Part shown: one piece after another, positions 6,034 through 55,718 of the stretch
Position numbering within the stretch: position 1 is the first letter of the stretch
How the letters are laid out: each line of letters begins with the position of its first letter
NCBI GenBank assembly: GCA_965221165.1
Contig: CBDCRP010000003.1
Span: forward strand, 1,376,001-1,440,000
DNA from: a bacterium
GTDB taxonomy: Bacteria > UBA8248
Direction of reading: 5' to 3'
Length of the DNA stretch: 64,000 nt
Notes under the pieces: model-generated
Database searches by the model: none
Seen by the model: the letters and a program-made list of their open reading frames with translations, nothing else
Told to the model about the DNA's origin: nothing
Position numbers and translations under genes: made by a program

Positions 6034-6913
6034 TCAGAGCGCGCGGCCGGCCACCAAGGCCCCGCCTATGACCACCGCCACCGTGCCTAGGAGAATCGGC
6101 CAGGTGATTCGCTCTATTTTCCGCAAAAATATGGCCGTGAGCAGCAGCGCCCACAAGGGCGCGGTGGCGGAGAGCGGAATGACGATGGTGAGGTCGCCGT
6201 AGCGGAGGCCATAGAGGTGCAATAGAACCGAAAGAGCGTTCAGCGAGCCGCCGATGCTGTACGCCACCCAGGCTTTTTTCACCATCAGGGAGGGCCTTAA
6301 GCCAGGAGGCAGATATTGCCCGAAAACATACAGGGATATCCCGCCCGAGACGCTCATGATCGATATGCCCAGAAACGGGTTGGGCGCCGGGCCGACGCCC
6401 AGCTTGCGCAGCATGTGCGAGACGGAGAAAAACCACGCTCCCGAGGGCGACGAGGAGGTATTCTTTCCGGATGGGCTGACTCTCTCCCCTTTTCGAGGTG
6501 ATTCCCACACACCCCAAAACGATGAGCACCGTACCGGCCAGGATGTACGGCCCCGGTCTTTCGCCCAGAATGAGGATGCCGATTATCGCCGAGAAAAGCG
6601 GCATGGTGGAATTGAGCGGCACCGCGCGCGCCACGCCTATCAGATGAATGGAATGGAAGAAACACACCCTTCCCACGGCGGGGCCCATAATTCCGGCCAG
6701 CGCGAAAAAAAGCCAGGCCATCGGCTGGTAGTGGGCGGGTTCCCACGTCCAGATCGCACCGGCGAGCAGCGGCGGAAACGATACGATAATCCCGATGAGA
6801 ACGCCCGATACCGCGTTCGCGTGACGCTGCCCGCTTCTCACAAACAGGGTGAAGGAGCCGACCACGACGGCGGTGGACAGCGAGAAGAGAACCGAGAGGG
6901 TGGTGATGGTCAT
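6034..6913 (-). pseudogene. EamA/DMT transporter with a frameshift
   Basis: The N-half (from 6913) and C-half (to 6034) are both EamA-like but in different frames. The shift is at the A5/T5 run 6428-6432 (…GSVV|FSVSHMLRK…). Confidence 0.75.
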
Positions 6914-7130
6914 TCAGAATTCGCCTTTGCACCAAAAAGCTAAAATCGCGAGGGTATCAGATACGTCTTTCAAAATCTCTTATGCGAGGCCACTGAAGAG
7001 TCCCCCGAAAAGAATATGTGGAATTTCCCGGGATGAGCGCATCGTTCCGCCTCTGAGAAAAGGGAGGACGTATGCGAGCCGGCCCTTAGGCTCTGATAAA
7101 TTCAGAAAATTTTTGCCGCAAGGAGAAAAT

Positions 7131-47287: not shown

Positions 47288-49120
47288 TCATCCCTCGTTT
47301 CGCGCTTCCGCCACGCCCAAGGCCGTGCGCAACTCATCCCCGCCGAGGGTTTCCTGCTCGAGCAGGCGCGCGGTGAGCGCCTCGAGGTCGTCGCGCCTCT
47401 CGGTCAATATCCCCATCGCGCGCGCATAGGCGCCGCCCAGGATTTTTTCCACCTCCTCGTCCACCTCGCGCTGGGTCGCCTCGCTGATGTCCAACCCCGC
47501 CGCCGCGCCGTTCATCCCGTCGCCCAGAAACAGCGAGCGCGGCGCGCGGCCCAGGGCGTGCGGGCCGAAGCGATCGCTCATGCCGTACTCGGTCACCATG
47601 GAGCGCGCCATGTCGGTGGCGCGCTGCAAGTCGTTCTGCGCCCCGGTGGAGACTTCCTCGAAAACCACTTCTTCCGCCGCGCGGCCCGCGAGGAGCACGG
47701 CGATTCTTTCTTCGAGTTCTTTTTTCGAGAGTAGATACCGATCTTCCGTCGGGCGCTGCAGGGTATAGCCCAGGGCGGCCAGACCCCTGGGGATGATCGA
47801 GACCTTCTGCACCGGGTCCGCCGTGCCCACGAGTTCGGCCACCATGGCGTGGCCCAGTTCGTGATAGGCCACGCGGCGGCGCTCTTCGCTCGTCATGACG
47901 CGGGATTTCTTCTCGAGACCCGCCGCCACCCGCTCGAAGGCTTCCTCGAAATCGGCCATCGTCACCGCGTCCCTGTCATGGCGCGCCGCCAAGAGCGCGG
48001 CCTCGTTCGCCAGGTTGGCGAGGTCCGCCCCCGAGAGGCCGGGCGTCATCGCCGCGAGCCTGTCGACGTCCACGTCCTGGCCCAGCACCAGCACCTTCGT
48101 ATGCACTTCCAGGATGCGCCTTCTGCCGCTCAAGTCCGGCTTGTCCACCAGCACCTGCCTGTCGAAGCGTCCGGGGCGCAGCAGGGCCGCGTCGAGAATC
48201 TCCGGCCGGTTGGTCGCCGCCATGATGATGACCCCCTTGCGGGTGTCGAAGCCGTCCATCTCGACCAAGAGCTGGTTGAGCGTCTGCTCGCGCTCGTCGT
48301 GGCCGCCCGCGAGGTTCCCCATGCCGCGCGCCTTGCCCAGCGCGTCCAGCTCATCCACGAAGACGATGCAGGGGGCCTTCTCCATCGCCTGTTCGAACAA
48401 ATCGCGCACGCGCGCGGCGCCCAGACCCACGAACATCTCGACGAACTCGGACCCGCTGATGCTGAAGAAAAAGACCCCCGCCTCTCCCGCCACGGCCTTC
48501 GCCATGAGCGTCTTCCCGCAGCCGGGTGGACCCACCAGCAGTACGCCGCGCGGAATCTTGCCGCCCAGGCGCATGTAGCGATCCGGATTTTTGAGATAAT
48601 CCACCACCTCGGCGAGTTCTTCCTTGGCCTCGTCCACGCCCGCCACGTCGGAGAAGCGAACGCCTACCTCTTTTTCCGCATAAATCTTCGCCTTGTTCTT
48701 GCCGAAGGCCATCACCCCCTGGCCCGGCCCCATGCGCCGCAGCACGAAAGCGTAGATGGCGAAGAGAATCCCCAGGGGCAGCACCCAGCTCGTGAACACC
48801 TGCACCAGCCAGGGCGGCTCGAACTGGCCCTGAAAGATGACGCCCGCACCCTCCAGGAGCTTGATGAGTTCGGGGTCGGCCACCTTCGCGGTCTCGAAGA
48901 ATCTCTGCTGCCCGTTCTCGTCGCGTCTTTTGAGAATTCCCTGGAGGCGGTCTCCGCGAATATCGACCCGCTCCACGTCGCCTTCTTTCAACATGGCGCG
49001 AAACTGGTTGTAGGGGATGCGCTGGTAGCGCGCGCCCTGGAAGAACAGGGTGTGGATCAAGGACATGATAACGAATATGAAGAGAAAATAACCGATGGAA
49101 AACTGTGTTTTCTTGTTCAT
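47288..49120 (-). CDS. ftsH: ATP-dependent zinc metalloprotease FtsH
   Basis: Two [39 protein letters not shown]. Confidence 0.96.
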
Positions 49121-49303
49121 CATCCCCTCCTTCGGGGAGAAAAGCGGCTGGTTCGCTCATCCGGCGGGCGCCGCGCGGAACTCCAAGGGCGCCACGGCCC
49201 GAGCATACCAAATTCGAAGCCGTACGGAAATTTCATTTATCCGAGAGGCGCGGGCCGGCGCTCCCGGGCCGGGGAATCCTGAAACCCCGCGAATCGGCGC
49301 ATA

Positions 49304-49852
49304 TCAGGAAGCCACGCCGTTTTCACTCAACAAGCGTGGATTCGCGGTCAGAATGGATAATTCCGCATGCTTGAAATCGGCGTCATGCGTCACGAGCGTG
49401 AGGCCCTCTCTCTCGCACAACTGCGCGATCACCTGGTCGTTGAAATCGGAATGGCCCGCGCCGTAGGCGTTCAGCATGTCATCCACTTTCAGCGTATCGA
49501 AGCCGCTCGCCACCTGTGCGCACTGGCTCGTCACCAGCTTGACGTCATGGGCGATTTCCAAGGCGATCGACTCGAAATCCTCGCTCCTGCGGAAAAATTT
49601 AAAGTCCTTGATGTCGGGCCTGCGGTTTTTCCATTCCCGTCTGGCGTATGCGTTGATGAATTCCGAAACGACGAGCACGTCGATGTGGATGCGGCTCCTC
49701 GCCTCATGGATATCGCGAAGGGCTTGCGAATACACGTTCACCTGGCGGGTTGCCTTCGGTTTTTGCGGAACGTAGATGTACCACCAGACGTTGGTGTCCA
49801 GGAACAGGCGATCCTCAGGCGTGAATGTGTAGCCGCGCACGTCACGCGTCAT
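49304..49852 (-). CDS. PIN domain ribonuclease
   Basis: LFLDTNVW, SEFIN, DFND, VTHDADF. The acidic tetrad is intact. Overlaps the upstream gene. Confidence 0.85.
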   Translation of the reverse strand: MTRDVRGYTFTPEDRLFLDTNVWWYIYVPQKPKATRQVNVYSQALRDIHEARSRIHIDVLVVSEFINAYARREWKNRRPDIKDFKFFRRSEDFESIALEIAHDVKLVTSQCAQVASGFDTLKVDDMLNAYGAGHSDFNDQVIAQLCEREGLTLVTHDADFKHAELSILTANPRLLSENGVAS

Positions 49853-50207
49853 CGTCTTCGCCCTCCAGCGCCTCGCGGCTCGCCTGCTCGAATCTCTCCG
49901 GGTCCTTGAAGTAGCGCTTGGCCGTCTCGACGACGCGCTTCAAGAGCGCGATATCGTCGGGCTCCATGTCCGCCACGTTCAAGGAGCGGCGAATGCGCTC
50001 CTCATCGAATTTCCCGTACAACTGGCCGATCGCGGTGTTCAGGAAGGCCGAGGTCAGCATCGTGACGTTGTGGAACGAGAGCACCGCGCCGTGGCCCTGC
50101 GCGAGCACGGAGGCGAGGCGCTCATACACCTTCTGCCCATCGCCGGAAGCGACGCAAAGAGGACTGCCCACCACTTCAAAGATGGATATGGCGATATCTT
50201 TGCGCAT
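49842..50207 (-). CDS. STAS-like DUF4325 protein
   Basis: CVASGDGQKVY...VLSFHNVTMLTSAFLNTAIGQLY pattern. Confidence 0.8.
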   Translation of the reverse strand: MRKDIAISIFEVVGSPLCVASGDGQKVYERLASVLAQGHGAVLSFHNVTMLTSAFLNTAIGQLYGKFDEERIRRSLNVADMEPDDIALLKRVVETAKRYFKDPERFEQASREALEGEDDDA

Positions 50208-50221
50208 CCGCGTCCCCTTTC

Positions 50222-51094
50222 TCAAAAAATATCATCGGCGCTCACCTCGGAAGCAAGGCTGTAGGAACTCGCATCCGAAATGTTGACTTCGAGGCTGACC
50301 ACGGTGCCCGGAAAAGGGTGGCCCAAAGTCCCGGTGGAGAGGTCGCTTTTTTTCTTCTCCCAATACCCGCCGTCCGACACGATGCGAAGGCAGCCGCCGT
50401 TGAGCTCGATGAACTCGCCGAGCAATTTCAAACCCAATCCGCCCGGCACGCCGGCGCGCTTGGTGGTATTGTGCGCCTCCGTGGCCCAGATGATCGCATC
50501 CACCGACCCCAGATTGTGCCCCGTGCGATCCCTGATGTTCCGGCGCATGCCGACGCCCAAGTCGACCACCGTGAAATCGAGCCTGTCCTGCGCGGGAAAG
50601 AATTGCCCGCAACTGAATATCCCCAGGCGGGTGTCCGAATGCAGCACGGCGTTGCTGAATATCTCAAAGATGCTTTCGCGGAATTTTTTCGCCAATCCCG
50701 GCGACATCCCGGGCAGGTCGGAGCGGTGGATGAACTCCCTCTCGATATAGCCGGAAAAATAGTGGTCGTCCCGCACGTCGAACCGCCGGTAGGAAATGGC
50801 CGCTCCCCAAGAATCGGGAATCTTCTCCCGCCCGTAATGACTCAGAAAACCGTTTTTCGAGAGAATTTCCGCCACCTCGTCGGTGGCACCCAGCAGGCGC
50901 ACCGTGTTCAACTGGCGTCCCAGACGATAGAGAATCGCGCCGAGGGCCGCGCACATATCGGCCTGGAAGCGTTTCGTTTCGCTCAAGTCGATCTCTATTT
51001 CTTCCAGGAAACAATCCTTCGTCTGCGCATGGAGCAGCGTCAGCGCGTCGAAGCTCTCCTGGTCGTGGCGAATCTCCGGCAGGGGGTATCTCAC
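50222..51094 (-). CDS. GHKL/HATPase (anti-sigma kinase-like) protein with N-terminal STAS-like region
   Basis: N box EIFSNAVLHS, G1 DLGVGM, G2 GGLGL, G3 GTVV. No His-phosphoacceptor domain or TM. Confidence 0.8.
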   Translation of the reverse strand: MRYPLPEIRHDQESFDALTLLHAQTKDCFLEEIEIDLSETKRFQADMCAALGAILYRLGRQLNTVRLLGATDEVAEILSKNGFLSHYGREKIPDSWGAAISYRRFDVRDDHYFSGYIEREFIHRSDLPGMSPGLAKKFRESIFEIFSNAVLHSDTRLGIFSCGQFFPAQDRLDFTVVDLGVGMRRNIRDRTGHNLGSVDAIIWATEAHNTTKRAGVPGGLGLKLLGEFIELNGGCLRIVSDGGYWEKKKSDLSTGTLGHPFPGTVVSLEVNISDASSYSLASEVSADDIF

Positions 51095-51288
51095 ACCATC
51101 ACCTCGGCATCACGAATGCGTCGCCAAACGAAAGGCGCGAACAGCCCGACTCTATGGGCCCTGCACCGCCTTTCCCATGCGTTTTTCTTCTCAGGTGAAG
51201 GTAAAACACGGCTTTGCGTTTGTCCATGGTGTGTGGAGGGGGTGTGGCGGGAAAAATATAAGCAAAATCGTTTACATGCAAAAAAGAA

Positions 51289-51318
51289 ATTGTAACCCGA
51301 GAGGTGATAGGTTACAAT
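51289..51318 (+). promoter_or_regulatory. higBA promoter/operator
   Basis: TTGTAA-N17-TACAAT coincides with the inverted repeat ATTGTAACC-N12-GGTTACAAT. The ATG is 6 nt after the -10. Confidence 0.75.
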
Positions 51319-51324
51319 CTGCGA

Positions 51325-51603
51325 ATGATCGTCCACTTCCGACACAACGGTCTCAGGCGTCTCTATGAGAGGGGGGAGCGACGGCGGATGCCGGCAGTAT
51401 ATGCCGCCAAAATCGAGCGGATACTCTCCCGTCTCGATGAGGCCACGATGCCGGCGCACATGGACTTGCCAGGCTACCGGTTGCACCCTTTGAGAGGAGA
51501 ACTCGCCGGGTTCTGGGCGGTGAGCGTCTCCCGTAACTGGAGGATCGTGTTTCGCTTCGATGGCGAGAACGTCACTGATGTGGATTTAACGGATTATCAC
51601 TAG
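51325..51603 (+). CDS. higB: HigB toxin (RelE/ParE family)
   Basis: MIVHFRHNGLRRLYE, PGYRLHPLRG, WAVSVSRNWRIVFRF, DYH. Confidence 0.92.
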   Translation: MIVHFRHNGLRRLYERGERRRMPAVYAAKIERILSRLDEATMPAHMDLPGYRLHPLRGELAGFWAVSVSRNWRIVFRFDGENVTDVDLTDYH

Positions 51604-51617
51604 AGGAGGATTAAGAC

Positions 51618-51902
51618 ATGGCCATGAAGAACCCGCCCCATCCGGGTCTTTCCGTCCGTTACGATTGCCTGGAACCGCTGGATTTGAGCGTCACCGAAGC
51701 CGCGCGGAAGCTCGGCGTGAGCCGCAAGCACCTCTCTAGCCTCGTCAATTGCCGATCGGGAATCTCGCCCGAAATGGCGATTCGCCTGGACAAAGCCTTC
51801 GGCGGGGGCGCCGAGGTGTGGTATCGCCTCCAGACGGCCTACGACTTCGCCCAAGCGATGAAGCGCGCCGACGAGATCGAGGTCGAGCGGGTGGGGGGGT
51901 GA
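51618..51902 (+). CDS. higA: HigA antitoxin (HTH)
   Basis: [35 protein letters not shown]. Confidence 0.92.
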
Positions 51903-52012
51903 GTTGCAACCATGTGCGGATTACGTCGTCTTGAATCCATCATGCGGGTATCGTAGGCTGTGGACGCCGCGTCAGAAGTAGTGTCCGTTTACCGGGATGG
52001 AGAAGTAAGTAT

Positions 52013-53560
52013 ATGAGCGATTCACCCGCGCAAAATCCTCTCGAGCTTGAAGTAAAAAATTTTGGGCCTATCAACGAGGCCAAGATCGATCTGCGCCCTT
52101 TGACCGTGTTCGTGGGACCGAGCAACACGGGCAAATCCTATCTGGCGGTCCTGATCTATGCGCTGCATCAGTATTTCAGTGACCGCTTTAGTATCGACGC
52201 GCTTTCTGGCTACCAACCTTACCCGATAGATTACAACATCTTCTGGAACGACAAAGAGAATCCATTTCACGAAGAAATCCTCAATGAACTTGTTGAATGG
52301 GCAGAGCAAACATTTGTGGATAAAGAAGAGTCGTCGGACGAGAGAAGCATTCTAATACCCGAATCCGTTTCAAGTTTGGTTCGTTCCGCGTTTTGCCAGT
52401 TTGACGCGCAGGGCGGCAATCTCGACGCTGAAATTAGCAGGTGCTTCGGCCTTAGTAAAACGAAAGCGTTGATTCGTAAGAGAAGCCAAGGAGGCGCAAA
52501 GGTCATTTTAAGAAAGCATGTCTCTGAAGATTCAGAACCTATTGTGCACAAGCTGACGATCGATACTCGAAAAACTGTACCTACTACCTCTGTTCCCCTG
52601 AAGATTCCTACACGGACCAATTCACAAATTCATAGCACATATAGAGAATTACTTCGCTGGAAAGCAGAAACAAAATCCGAATATGAGCTAATTGTGGCTA
52701 AGAATTTAATAGGAGCTTTAGTCGCTAGTATCTTGTCTTCTCTCGTCGAGCCCTTGTATTTGCCCGCGTTCTATCTCCCCGCCGACCGCACAGGCATCAT
52801 GCACGCGCACACTGCGGTCACCAGCGCCTTAATCCGTAGGGCCCCAATGACGGGTCAGCGTCAGGCTCCCCCCACTCCGATGCTTTCGGGTGTTCTGGCG
52901 GATTTTCTCGAACAATTGATCAACCTTGACAGTCATACTTATCAAGGGCACTGGCCACACCGATGGAATGATCTTGGGGATCAGATCGAAAAATCCGTTC
53001 TCGATGGGACAGTTCATATCCAGAGATCAGAAACCGGTTACCCGCGCTTCACGTATCGACCGGAAGGATGGAAGGACGACCTCCCCTTGATGAACGCCTC
53101 CTCCATGGTGTCGGAACTCGCACCGGTGGTGCTGTATCTGCGGCATGTGGTAAGACCCGGCAACGTATTGATCGTCGAAGAGCCGGAATCGCACTTACAC
53201 CCAGCCATGCAAGTCGAGTTCACACGGCAGCTTGCGGTGCTCGTTCGTGCGGGCGTTCGAGTGATCATCACGACGCACAGCGAGTGGATTCTGGAGGAAC
53301 TCGCCAACATCGTGCGGCTATCCGGTCTGCCTAAGGCCAAAAGAAAGGGGATTGAAGGCGGCGACATCGCCCTGCGGCCAGACGAGGTGGGGGCATGGCT
53401 GTTCCAGCCGAAAAACCGCCCCAGGGGGTCGGTCGTCAAGGAAATCCCACTCGATGATGATTCGGGGCTTTTCCCGTCCGGTTTCGATGAGGTAGCCGTT
53501 GCGCTACACAACAACTGGGCCGAGATATCCAGCCGAGACCGAGGTGGTGCGAACGGGTGA
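52013..53560 (+). CDS. ABC-type (AAA_15/AAA_21-like) ATPase
   Basis: VKNFGPI, Walker A GPSNTGKS, signature ASSMVSEL, Walker B/D-loop IVEEPESHLHP, H-loop TTHS. Confidence 0.88.
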   Translation: MSDSPAQNPLELEVKNFGPINEAKIDLRPLTVFVGPSNTGKSYLAVLIYALHQYFSDRFSIDALSGYQPYPIDYNIFWNDKENPFHEEILNELVEWAEQTFVDKEESSDERSILIPESVSSLVRSAFCQFDAQGGNLDAEISRCFGLSKTKALIRKRSQGGAKVILRKHVSEDSEPIVHKLTIDTRKTVPTTSVPLKIPTRTNSQIHSTYRELLRWKAETKSEYELIVAKNLIGALVASILSSLVEPLYLPAFYLPADRTGIMHAHTAVTSALIRRAPMTGQRQAPPTPMLSGVLADFLEQLINLDSHTYQGHWPHRWNDLGDQIEKSVLDGTVHIQRSETGYPRFTYRPEGWKDDLPLMNASSMVSELAPVVLYLRHVVRPGNVLIVEEPESHLHPAMQVEFTRQLAVLVRAGVRVIITTHSEWILEELANIVRLSGLPKAKRKGIEGGDIALRPDEVGAWLFQPKNRPRGSVVKEIPLDDDSGLFPSGFDEVAVALHNNWAEISSRDRGGANG

Positions 53561-54021
53561 CGGGATTAGTGGATGCGGTCCGTGAAAAAGTTTCTCCCAA
53601 ATGCCTCTCAAGGAAATGTAGCAGGCCCGGGTGTAGTGTTCCCCTGAAAGATGCGCCTAACCCACGTTTGATTATCGACTTCGACAAACCGGACTCGCCG
53701 CTCGGCGAGCGTGATACGAGTTGCGACTTCCTGTTTATCGCCGAAGGAGATGACGAATCAGCCTGGGTCGCGCCGCTGGAGTTGAAAAGCGGTGGGATAG
53801 ACGCCAGCGAAGTCATCAAACAACTTCAAGCGGGCGCACGCGCCGCCGAGAAACTTGTTTGCAGAAACCTTCCGGTCAATTTCCGCCCAATTGTCGCCAG
53901 TGGAAACCTACCTAAAGCAGAAAGGACGGCGATAAAGCGGACGATAAGGTTTCATAGAGATTCCATGCCAGTCCGCCGAATCCGTTGCGGCGCTCCGCTA
54001 ACCCAAGCGCTTCGCCAATGA
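53557..54021 (+). CDS. Hypothetical protein, PD-(D/E)xK-like nuclease candidate
   Basis: GTGA overlap with the ATPase stop. CDFLFI...LELKSG...QLQAG resembles the D..ExK..Q restriction-like core. Confidence 0.6.
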   Translation: MTGLVDAVREKVSPKCLSRKCSRPGCSVPLKDAPNPRLIIDFDKPDSPLGERDTSCDFLFIAEGDDESAWVAPLELKSGGIDASEVIKQLQAGARAAEKLVCRNLPVNFRPIVASGNLPKAERTAIKRTIRFHRDSMPVRRIRCGAPLTQALRQ

Positions 54022-54100
54022 ATACCTAGAACTCGAAAAACGCTACCCTCTTCTCCCCTTCATCCCCTGAACCCCCATTCCCCCCCCACCCCCCTCCCCC

Positions 54101-54129
54101 TTGCGCTTCGCGTCTCGTTCGTCTTTAAT
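54101..54129 (+). promoter_or_regulatory. Putative sigma70 promoter of the deiodinase-like gene
   Basis: TTGCGC-N17-TTTAAT. Confidence 0.45.
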
Positions 54130-54176
54130 GGAACGGCATTTTTTCATACCCCCCGACACCGGATATAGGAGCGCAC

Positions 54177-54824
54177 ATGCGAGAAACGGACGAATTCGAC
54201 AGGCCGCCGGGCCCGTTGTTCGGGCTTTGGAGCGCGTTTTACATCGACAAGTGGAAATTTCTGAAACGAAACCTCATGGGAGCTCGAAAAGAGCGCAAAC
54301 AGGCGTTCCGCGACACCCTGCAGCCGGGCGACCCGATGCCGGACGTCCGCCTCAAGGCCACCGAGGACACCGCGTTCGACCTCGCAGATTTTTTCGGCAA
54401 AAAGAACATCGTCATCGAATTCGGGGCCATCACCTGACCCCCCTATCGCCGGCAGGTGGCCGGCGTCGAGAGTTTGCAGGAGAAATACCAGGGTGAGGAC
54501 GTGGTCTTCTTCGTCGTCTACTCGAAAGAACCCCACGCGGGCGAAACCCGCCATTTCAAGAAATACGCGCAGCACGAGACGTATGAGCACAAGAAAAAAT
54601 ATGCCGAAGAACTCGTGGCGGAATTCGGCATGAAGGCGCCCGTCCTGATCGACGACCTGGACGAGAGCGTCGTGCACGCATTCGGCCGCATGCCGAACAT
54701 GACGTTCATCGTCGATAAGGAAGGGAAGATCGCCTACAAGTCCGACTGGATGGAGGCTGCGCGCATCGAGGAGTTGCTCGACAAGTTGCTGGCCGAACAG
54801 ACGGCAGAGGCGGCGACCGCCTGA
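54177..54824 (+). CDS. Iodothyronine deiodinase-like / thioredoxin-fold selenoprotein (Sec at TGA 54435-54437)
   Basis: ORFs 54177-54437 and 54456-54824 are in frame. Readthrough gives EFGAIT-U-PPYR...VVYSKEPHAGE...LIDD...AFGRMPN..FIVDKEGKIAYK. RBS AGGAG. SECIS-like hairpin follows. Confidence 0.88.
54447..54465 (+). promoter_or_regulatory. Putative bacterial SECIS element
   Basis: CGCCGGC-AGGTG-GCCGGCG perfect 7-bp stem. The GG-containing loop lies 16 nt after the UGA. Confidence 0.75.
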
Positions 54825-54890
54825 CCGGAGGAGCCTGAGGATCAACTCCCGCAAGCAAGGGGCGCGCAGGAGTTCAAACGGAAACACACG

Positions 54891-54919
54891 GGGCGGCCCA
54901 CGCGGCGGGCCGCCCTTTT
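54891..54919 (+). terminator. Rho-independent terminator
   Basis: GGGCGGCCC-N7-GGGCCGCCC-TTTT. Confidence 0.65.
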
Positions 54920-54968
54920 CCGTCCGCATCGCGTATGAGCACCGACCGCTTGGAATGGTGAAAGAAGA

Positions 54969-55718
54969 ATGAATCGAACCGGAGAAAAGAATTCGCGGGG
55001 GCGGCATTGGACCAGGGACGAAGAAATACTGGCAATGGATGCCTATGTTTCTGGAGTGAAAGACAAAGAGAGCGATCCAAGATTCAAGGAATTGTGTGAA
55101 CTTCTGGATAAACCGTTTGATAGCGTCCGGATGAGGTTCGCGAATTATAACTACCTTAATCCTGAGCATCCCCGCAAAGGTCTTTCAGGCGGCAAAACTC
55201 CGAAGATTCAAAAGGTGTGGGATGAGTTTGCCGATGACCCGGACAGGCTAAACTCCACGGCCAACACCATAAAACAGCATATCGAAACGGATCAGAAGCC
55301 GGGAGAGTCGCAGAACACAGAATCGCTGGGGCCCATTGCTGAGGCTTCCGAAGGGGAAATTCTTACCAAATCTCATATAGTCCGTGAACGAAACCGTAAA
55401 CTCATCCAAAAGAAGAAAAAAAGCGTCCTTCAAAAAACTGGTCGGCTGGTTTGCGAGGCGTGCGGGTTCGACTTTACAAAAAAGTATGGTGAAAGAGGCG
55501 AGGGCTTCATCGAGTGCCATCACACCAAGCCGTTGCGCGACTTGAAGCCTGGAAGCGCGACTCGCTTGACTGACTTGGTTTTGCTGTGTTCGAACTGCCA
55601 CAGTATGGTACATGCGAAGGAGCCGTGGTTGGAGATGAAAGAACTCGTTCGTTTGATCAATTCGGCCAAGCGCGGGGGCCGCGCGCGTAAGAACGCCCCA
55701 AAGCGCCGTCAGGGATAG
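54969..55718 (+). CDS. HNH endonuclease (McrA-like, candidate modification-dependent restriction)
   Basis: WTRDEEILA N-terminus, ERNRKL, CEACGFDF..KYG..GFIECHH, LLCSNCHSMVH. Lower GC. Confidence 0.85.
   Translation: MNRTGEKNSRGRHWTRDEEILAMDAYVSGVKDKESDPRFKELCELLDKPFDSVRMRFANYNYLNPEHPRKGLSGGKTPKIQKVWDEFADDPDRLNSTANTIKQHIETDQKPGESQNTESLGPIAEASEGEILTKSHIVRERNRKLIQKKKKSVLQKTGRLVCEACGFDFTKKYGERGEGFIECHHTKPLRDLKPGSATRLTDLVLLCSNCHSMVHAKEPWLEMKELVRLINSAKRGGRARKNAPKRRQG

Follow-up and report, generated by a model that had tools for sequence, protein, structure and literature searches.

A 64,000-nucleotide chromosomal stretch of an uncultured bacterium (contig CBDCRP010000003.1 of assembly GCA_965221165.1, positions 1,376,001 to 1,440,000; hereafter the window) carries on its reverse strand, at positions 49304 to 51094, three genes that appear to encode a GHKL-type ATPase, a small STAS protein and a PIN-domain nuclease. 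Which system do these genes form, and what would switch the nuclease on? An initial annotation, made from the sequence, had proposed that a kinase-STAS pair of the SpoIIAB/SpoIIAA type controls the PIN nuclease, and had treated the triad as a possibly new module. We conclude that the locus is very probably a vapKSC operon, whose three components form a toxin-antitoxin and anti-phage module under the control of a kinase. Such an operon of Escherichia sp. E4736 has been described by Chambers, Rani, Min, Villa and Corbett (EMBO J 2026; PMC13373217; PDB 9z7o), and the window triad is a copy of this published system, not a new one. The claim of novelty falls because the module matches the described vapKSC; the match bears on novelty and not on mechanism. 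The proposed control of a PIN nuclease by a kinase-STAS pair is supported by the published vapKSC model and by the homology of VapS and VapC.

Results

The operon and its published relative

The three genes lie in the order vapK, vapS, vapC. The open reading frame (ORF) of vapK (50222..51094) has a GTG start preceded by GAGGTG and encodes 290 amino acids. vapS (49842..50207) encodes a predicted DUF4325/STAS antitoxin with a C-terminal helix, 121 amino acids long when read from the ATG at 50207, which is preceded by AAAGGGGA; an alternative start, the TTG at 50225, would give 127 amino acids (ORF 49842-50225). The gene of the PIN-domain toxin, vapC (49304..49852), encodes 182 amino acids, and its ATG is preceded by GGAGGG. 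With the ATG at 50207 taken as the start of vapS, a gap of 14 bases separates vapK from vapS and an overlap of 11 bases joins vapS to vapC; the ORF list and the start sites thus agree with the close packing noted at the outset.

For the Escherichia system, a crystal structure of a VapS2-VapC2 complex with a buried serine has been reported, and VapC was toxic, its D28A variant not (PMC13373217). Toxicity was rescued by VapS alone, and was not rescued by VapS with a C-terminal deletion or by VapS S48E, a phosphomimetic variant that had lost VapC binding. The operon conferred approximately two logs of protection against phage Bas42, which was abolished by D28A, S48A or VapK F54A. The authors describe Escherichia VapK as a CapK-like protein composed of a STAS and a GHKL domain, and report that ssDNA (single-stranded DNA)-dependent phosphorylation by CapK was demonstrated in vitro. 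In their model VapS inhibits VapC until VapK, activated by phage infection or DNA damage, phosphorylates VapS and frees the nuclease. They list 289 three-gene vapKSC operons in IMG, and for 36% a PADLOC match lies no more than 10 kb away (PMC13373217). The coupling of PIN and DUF4325 had been noted in 2017 by Matelska et al. (PMC5499597). Searches of the literature on DUF4325/STAS with PIN and GHKL, and on VapK/CapK, gave nothing beyond the EMBO J article with its preprint and the PIN classification of 2017.

VapS and VapC are homologous to the published pair

The only significant PDB match of the window VapS was 9z7o_A, 'Escherichia VapS' (E=5.4e-16, residues 7-114), to which it is about one third identical by a hand count from the alignment. 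In this alignment S53 stands opposite S66 of the 9z7o_A chain, which corresponds to the native phospho-site S48 when the 18-residue tag is subtracted (counted by hand). The stand-alone STAS protein with Thr-Ser at the place of the phospho-serine, as initially described, was thereby substantiated: the motif T52-S53-A54-F55-L56-N57 was invariant in 74/74 distinct STAS proteins. Towards the C-terminus the stretch L88-F100 is conserved, and the alignment to 9z7o_A reaches residue 114 of 121. Pfam assigned VapS to DUF4325 (3.4e-15), with a sub-threshold 'Scaffold' match as the only other one, and in the PHROGs it belongs to phrog_9989.

VapC was recognized as a PIN protein by Pfam (7.8e-11), and its only PDB match at E<=1 was 9z7o_C, 'Escherichia VapC' (9.7e-6), with D19 opposite the catalytic D28. 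The reading of VapC as a PIN RNase with all acidic catalytic residues is borne out by the conservation of these positions, as D19 was kept in 62 of 63 distinct PIN proteins and E64, D136, D139, D157 and D159 in 63/63. In NCBIfam none of the three window proteins belonged to a family, and the weak VapC matches lay far under the cut-offs.

We also predicted the complex of VapC with VapS. The prediction scored 0.86, and the best of three controls 0.06; among solved complexes 116 of 157 attained this mark, among mismatched pairs 2 of 215. Three runs shared at least 89% of their contacts, with a pLDDT (predicted local distance difference test) of the partner of at least 87. The predicted VapC interface on VapS comprises residues 50, 52-55 and 98-114 and thus includes S53, which fits the buried serine and the C-terminal helix directed towards the active site in the published VapS-VapC structure (PMC13373217). 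The model supports binding of VapC by VapS in the window copy. Since a like complex (9z7o) has already been solved, the passing score may partly reflect this likeness.

VapK combines a STAS domain with a SpoIIAB-like kinase domain

An earlier model of VapK, built from 21 close homologues, was poor (pLDDT 68), and its Foldseek matches were to generic GHKL proteins only. An AlphaFold2 model built from a 64-sequence alignment reached a pLDDT of 93.7 and a pTM (predicted template modelling score) of 0.91. In a structural search against representatives, residues 96-275 of this model matched SpoIIAB (1l0o_A; Z 13.0, root-mean-square deviation 2.8, 136 residues aligned) and residues 1-89 matched RsbV (6m36_B; Z 10.4, root-mean-square deviation 1.9, 86 residues aligned), followed for the N-terminal domain by other anti-sigma antagonists, MlaB and the STAS domains of SLC26 proteins. 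Foldseek concurred, with histidine-kinase CA domains and SpoIIAB among its matches. According to the model, VapK is composed of an N-terminal STAS domain (residues ~1-90), which had been overlooked in the first reading of the sequence, and a SpoIIAB-like GHKL kinase domain (~96-275). With DUF4325 and PIN identified by Pfam, and GHKL by the structural search and Foldseek, all three folds were confirmed.

The catalytic motifs of VapK are conserved (E144/N148/H152, D178xG180 and G218-G219-x-G221). E144, N148, G180, G218, G219, G221 and G263 were invariant in 64/64 diverse homologues, H152 was kept in 63 of them and D178 was near-invariant; together with the SpoIIAB fold match this validates the description of a GHKL ATPase with intact boxes. 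Judging from the N-box motif, N148 would be the equivalent of N218 of CapK. In sequence searches VapK matched phrog_3364, a PHROG family of unknown function (4.5e-36), a phmmer search against PDB sequences returned only chance matches to thrombin, and a VapK profile found only the kinase domain of ETR1 among the PDB sequences (4e-4). A profile-profile comparison of VapS with VapK gave a probability of 1.6%, so that their STAS domains are linked by fold only and not at the sequence level.

The triad is conserved across distant hosts

Relatives of VapK are numerous. We found 1443 in a collection clustered at 90% identity, and the best 120 of these were almost all exactly 290 amino acids long and about 65% identical to the window protein; those that carry a name are called "ATP-binding protein", "sensor histidine kinase" or hypothetical, and come from Nitrotoga, Deltaproteobacteria and Desulfobulbaceae. 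Among 1.84 billion representatives a VapK profile retrieved 3033 clusters (50% identity) with a cut-off of E<=1e-3, and the stricter cut-off of E<=1e-30 left 562. The vapKSC kinase family therefore far exceeds the 289 published instances (PMC13373217).

For a survey of gene order we gathered 80 metagenome, 5 viral and 2 genome loci as well as 8 from the window's phylum, and used the three proteins of the window as queries against the ORFs of these loci. The metagenome and viral loci had been found with an alignment, the 2 genome loci with a single-protein query. Three loci were dropped as duplicates, L003 being the window itself, L004 the same place as L002 and L005 the same place as L001, which left 92 loci. 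In 72 of these, representing 64 distinct kinase proteins, at least 950 nt were present downstream of the kinase gene; the remaining 20 end too early. The order kinase-STAS-PIN was intact in 70/72 loci, confirming that the triad is conserved, with vapK as the best conserved of the three genes. The commonest vapS-vapC junction was an 11-base overlap, found 38 times, as in the window.

Two loci departed from this order. In L048 vapC is split in two, and in L052 no VapC ORF follows vapS and a convergent pair of ORFs occupies the place of vapC instead (6405-7035, reverse strand; a 130-amino-acid PIN-like protein and a 78-amino-acid partner, named by eye). We considered whether these loci carry alternative effectors, and rejected this; both are read as decay.

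At 26-37% kinase identity the triad was still kept in the viral contigs L091-L093, in a faecal phage scaffold, in Streptococcus phage Javan172 and on a plasmid of Deinococcus gobiensis. The latter, plasmid P5 of strain I-0, has its triad annotated as ATP-binding, STAS-like and PIN proteins (tblastn 34% identity, 2e-39), and by its strain name I-0 matches an entry listed in Dataset EV3 of the published work (PMC13373217). In Javan172 (MK448860.1) the triad is flanked by the integrase on one side and by a cI-like repressor/ImmA-like peptidase pair on the other. At the vapC place the record has only a 39-amino-acid ORF annotated, which could be taken to mean that phages carry a kinase-STAS pair without a PIN gene. 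We rejected this reading, as an unannotated VapC-homologous ORF is present (L096, 4257-4787; 4.7e-24 against the VapC profile).

Within the window's phylum the kinase occurred in 8 of 51 genomes, all of a single genus (the window's own genome and 7 of 22 others). The distribution of vapKSC within genus and phylum is thus patchy.

Genomic neighbourhood

On the same strand, 180 bases downstream of vapC, lies ftsH (47288-49123). Wherever the flanks were present in the genus (L001, L002, L006-L009), the triad stood directly upstream of ftsH. Between these triad-bearing genomes with flanking sequence, FtsH was 93-97% identical, whereas VapK was 72-96% identical.

The stretch around vapKSC is GC-poor, with values down to 52.5% compared with ~60% around it, and contains HigBA, an AAA_15 ATPase and an HNH protein. 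Pfam and PADLOC thereby corroborated the initial description of a triad beside toxin-antitoxin, ATPase and HNH genes. Divergent from vapK, a HigB-like toxin (5.5e-15) and an HTH_3 antitoxin are encoded at 51304-51902 on the forward strand. The divergent intergenic region between vapK and higB (51095..51303) likely holds the promoter of vapKSC, as far as matches to a consensus can tell: a scan of this region found 3 sites compared with 0.9 expected, and the sigma-70-like sites on the reverse strand (51317-51289 and 51282-51255) are matches to consensus only. An inverted repeat, TTGTAACC...GGTTACAA, at ~51290-51318 overlaps the start of higB, scores as promoter-like on either strand and might serve as an operator.

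Further along the forward strand, at 52013-54021, the neighbourhood has its lowest GC content (52.5%). This region encodes a 515-amino-acid AAA_15/AAA_21 ATPase, which PADLOC matched to PD-T4-4_A (2.5e-38) and also to PDC-M47A, NsnB and AriA, together with a 154-amino-acid partner that overlaps it by 4 bases and had no match in Pfam, PADLOC, NCBIfam or the PHROGs. The two may form a two-gene defence pair. The HNH protein (54969-55718, forward strand; 249 amino acids) matched the PADLOC models 'HNH' (2.7e-8) and mREase_IV (1.9e-6), and a copy that is 59% identical adjoins the triad in another genome of the genus (L009). At the end of the window, between 60001 and 64000, the GC content is 49-50% compared with ~60% elsewhere; this part may be another acquired island.

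An arginine at an aromatic position of VapK

In the published system the predicted ssDNA site contains an aromatic residue, F54 in Escherichia VapK and W68 in CapK (PMC13373217). In this part of the STAS domain, our VapK alignment is strongly aromatic at column 42 only, with W in 76/83 locus proteins and W, F or Y in 59/64 diverse homologues. This column is probably the equivalent of F54/W68, and as such a candidate for the putative ssDNA-stacking residue. In the window VapK and in L001 the residue in this column is arginine (R42), and in L006-L008, which belong to the same genus, it is tyrosine. If column 42 corresponds to F54, the trigger or its strength may differ in the window copy because of R42.

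Discussion

The question raised by this locus is best answered with the published model applied to the window proteins. Free VapC would be a toxic PIN nuclease. VapS, a STAS protein with a C-terminal helix, would bind and block it, with the conserved Ser53 in the interface. A damage or infection signal, for which ssDNA has been proposed in the Escherichia system, would activate VapK, and active VapK would phosphorylate Ser53 so that VapS dissociates. The released VapC would then cut RNA, leading to growth arrest and aborted infection. For the window triad itself, our analysis establishes the folds, the motifs, the homology of VapS and VapC, the strict synteny and, in silico, an interface that contains Ser53. 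A phosphorylation-gated nuclease module had thus been deduced correctly from sequence alone.

Several observations weigh against the identification of the locus as a functional vapKSC operon. The homology of VapC to 9z7o_C is modest, and the Pfam HATPase_c score of VapK (19.8 bits) is under the cut-off of 26.4, because of which the GHKL assignment of VapK rests on the fold. The search of PADLOC-DB v2.0.0 (2023) found no matching model for the triad, a weak DrmA match (0.0032) being the only one among the three proteins, and no terminator-like site was found between vapC and ftsH in the 180 bases that separate them. Escherichia VapK was insoluble, and its kinase activity and activation by ssDNA rest on an AlphaFold 3 model, on F54A and on the analogy to CapK (PMC13373217). 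The window VapK carries arginine in the normally aromatic column 42. Finally, we infer by analogy all biochemical activity of the window copy and the nature of its trigger.

The initial annotation had envisaged a partner switch rewired so that its output is a nuclease. The gating of a toxin or defence nuclease by phosphorylation is supported. In a true SpoIIAB-type switch, the kinase would sequester the PIN nuclease and the unphosphorylated STAS protein would displace it, an arrangement that was among those raised in the initial annotation and is in keeping with the kinase domain, whose best structural match is SpoIIAB, and with a STAS partner that resembles SpoIIAB antagonists. We nevertheless regard it as very improbable, since it is the STAS protein and not the kinase that holds the nuclease: the published crystal is that of VapS2-VapC2, VapS alone rescues VapC toxicity (PMC13373217), the window VapS and VapC are homologous to the chains of 9z7o, and the predicted VapS-VapC complex, with its score of 0.86 against 0.06 for the best control, places S53 in the interface. 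These findings support a kinase-controlled antitoxin in the window rather than a switch with its output sequestered by the kinase. Still more improbable, to the point of being scarcely credible, is an ordinary VapBC type II pair that happens to lie beside an unrelated kinase gene. The toxin is a PIN protein, the DUF4325-coupled group PIN.4 has been placed in the VapC group (PMC5499597; a statement on PIN.4 and not on the window VapC), and the toxin gene is overlapped by the short gene 5' of it, an arrangement frequent for antitoxins. However, the kinase gene adjoins the pair in 70 of the 72 informative loci and surpasses both in conservation, the small protein lacks a DNA-binding domain and shows a STAS fold in which TSAFLN is invariant, and Matelska et al. 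separate PIN.4 from toxin-antitoxin contexts (PMC5499597).

A different reading concerns the signal. It is possible, albeit unlikely, that VapK of this genus does not sense ssDNA through an aromatic residue and answers to another cue, or that the triad is a chromosomal module chiefly for stress or addiction and not for phage defence. Such a change could be read from column 42, where the window and L001 have R and L006-L008 have Y compared with W in 76/83 locus proteins, and from the constant place directly upstream of ftsH, which looks like a settled chromosomal position. But the equivalence of column 42 with F54 is putative, arginine and tyrosine are also able to contact nucleic acid, and the catalytic motifs of VapK are all intact. 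Moreover, the neighbouring genes are defence-like and toxin-antitoxin-like, and the patchy occurrence in 7 of 22 other genomes of the genus is as expected for an accessory defence gene. We therefore consider it doubtful that this lineage has retuned VapK to a non-ssDNA trigger or a changed threshold, as might follow from the drift from Trp to Arg/Tyr and the fixed place upstream of ftsH. If it were true, the lineage would offer a natural variant for mapping signal sensing in VapK and CapK kinases.

Comparison with known systems places the window vapKSC operon between several families. With VapBC type II systems it would share a PIN toxin neutralised by the small product of the gene immediately upstream, the genes overlapping. 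The antitoxin differs, in that classical VapB proteins carry DNA-binding domains of the ribbon-helix-helix, AbrB, helix-turn-helix or Phd types, whereas the upstream protein of the window matched DUF4325/STAS only and has a STAS fold and no DNA-binding domain; the operon accordingly encodes no classical VapB, as had been stated. In Escherichia, unlike in many VapB complexes, VapS leaves the active-site Mg2+ in place (PMC13373217), and VapC of the window would be released by phosphorylation and not by proteolysis.

The operon resembles SpoIIAB-SpoIIAA and RsbW-RsbV in the fold of its kinase (SpoIIAB, Z 13.0) and in its STAS fold, which for the domain within the kinase matched RsbV at Z 10.4; in addition, the serine sits where the second helix of the STAS substrate begins. 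In contrast to these pairs, the window kinase has a fused STAS domain, and the output protein is held by the STAS substrate instead of the kinase. A Pfam scan of nine ORFs from 49304 to 55718 revealed no sigma factor and no PP2C phosphatase, which agrees with the absence of both from the operon noted initially.

CapK-CapS is closer in its kinase, a STAS and GHKL protein that phosphorylates a conserved serine of its STAS partner (PMC13373217), as VapK of the window would do by analogy. CapK has a helix-turn-helix domain at its N-terminus, and CapS has a C-terminal winged helix-turn-helix domain and is a transcriptional repressor (PMC13373217). In contrast, no helix-turn-helix was found in the window VapK, whose STAS domain starts at residue 1, or in VapS, for which Pfam gave DUF4325 only, and the predicted output is a directly bound nuclease and not transcription.

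The closest relative is VapKSC of Escherichia. The window copy is distant from it (VapS about one third identical; VapC 9.7e-6), is chromosomal in an uncultured bacterium, lies beside ftsH and has arginine at the position of the probable aromatic ssDNA-contact residue. The two systems nevertheless share the same three genes in the same order, a VapK composed of STAS and GHKL domains, a VapS with the serine and the C-terminal helix, and a VapC with the catalytic aspartate (PMC13373217).

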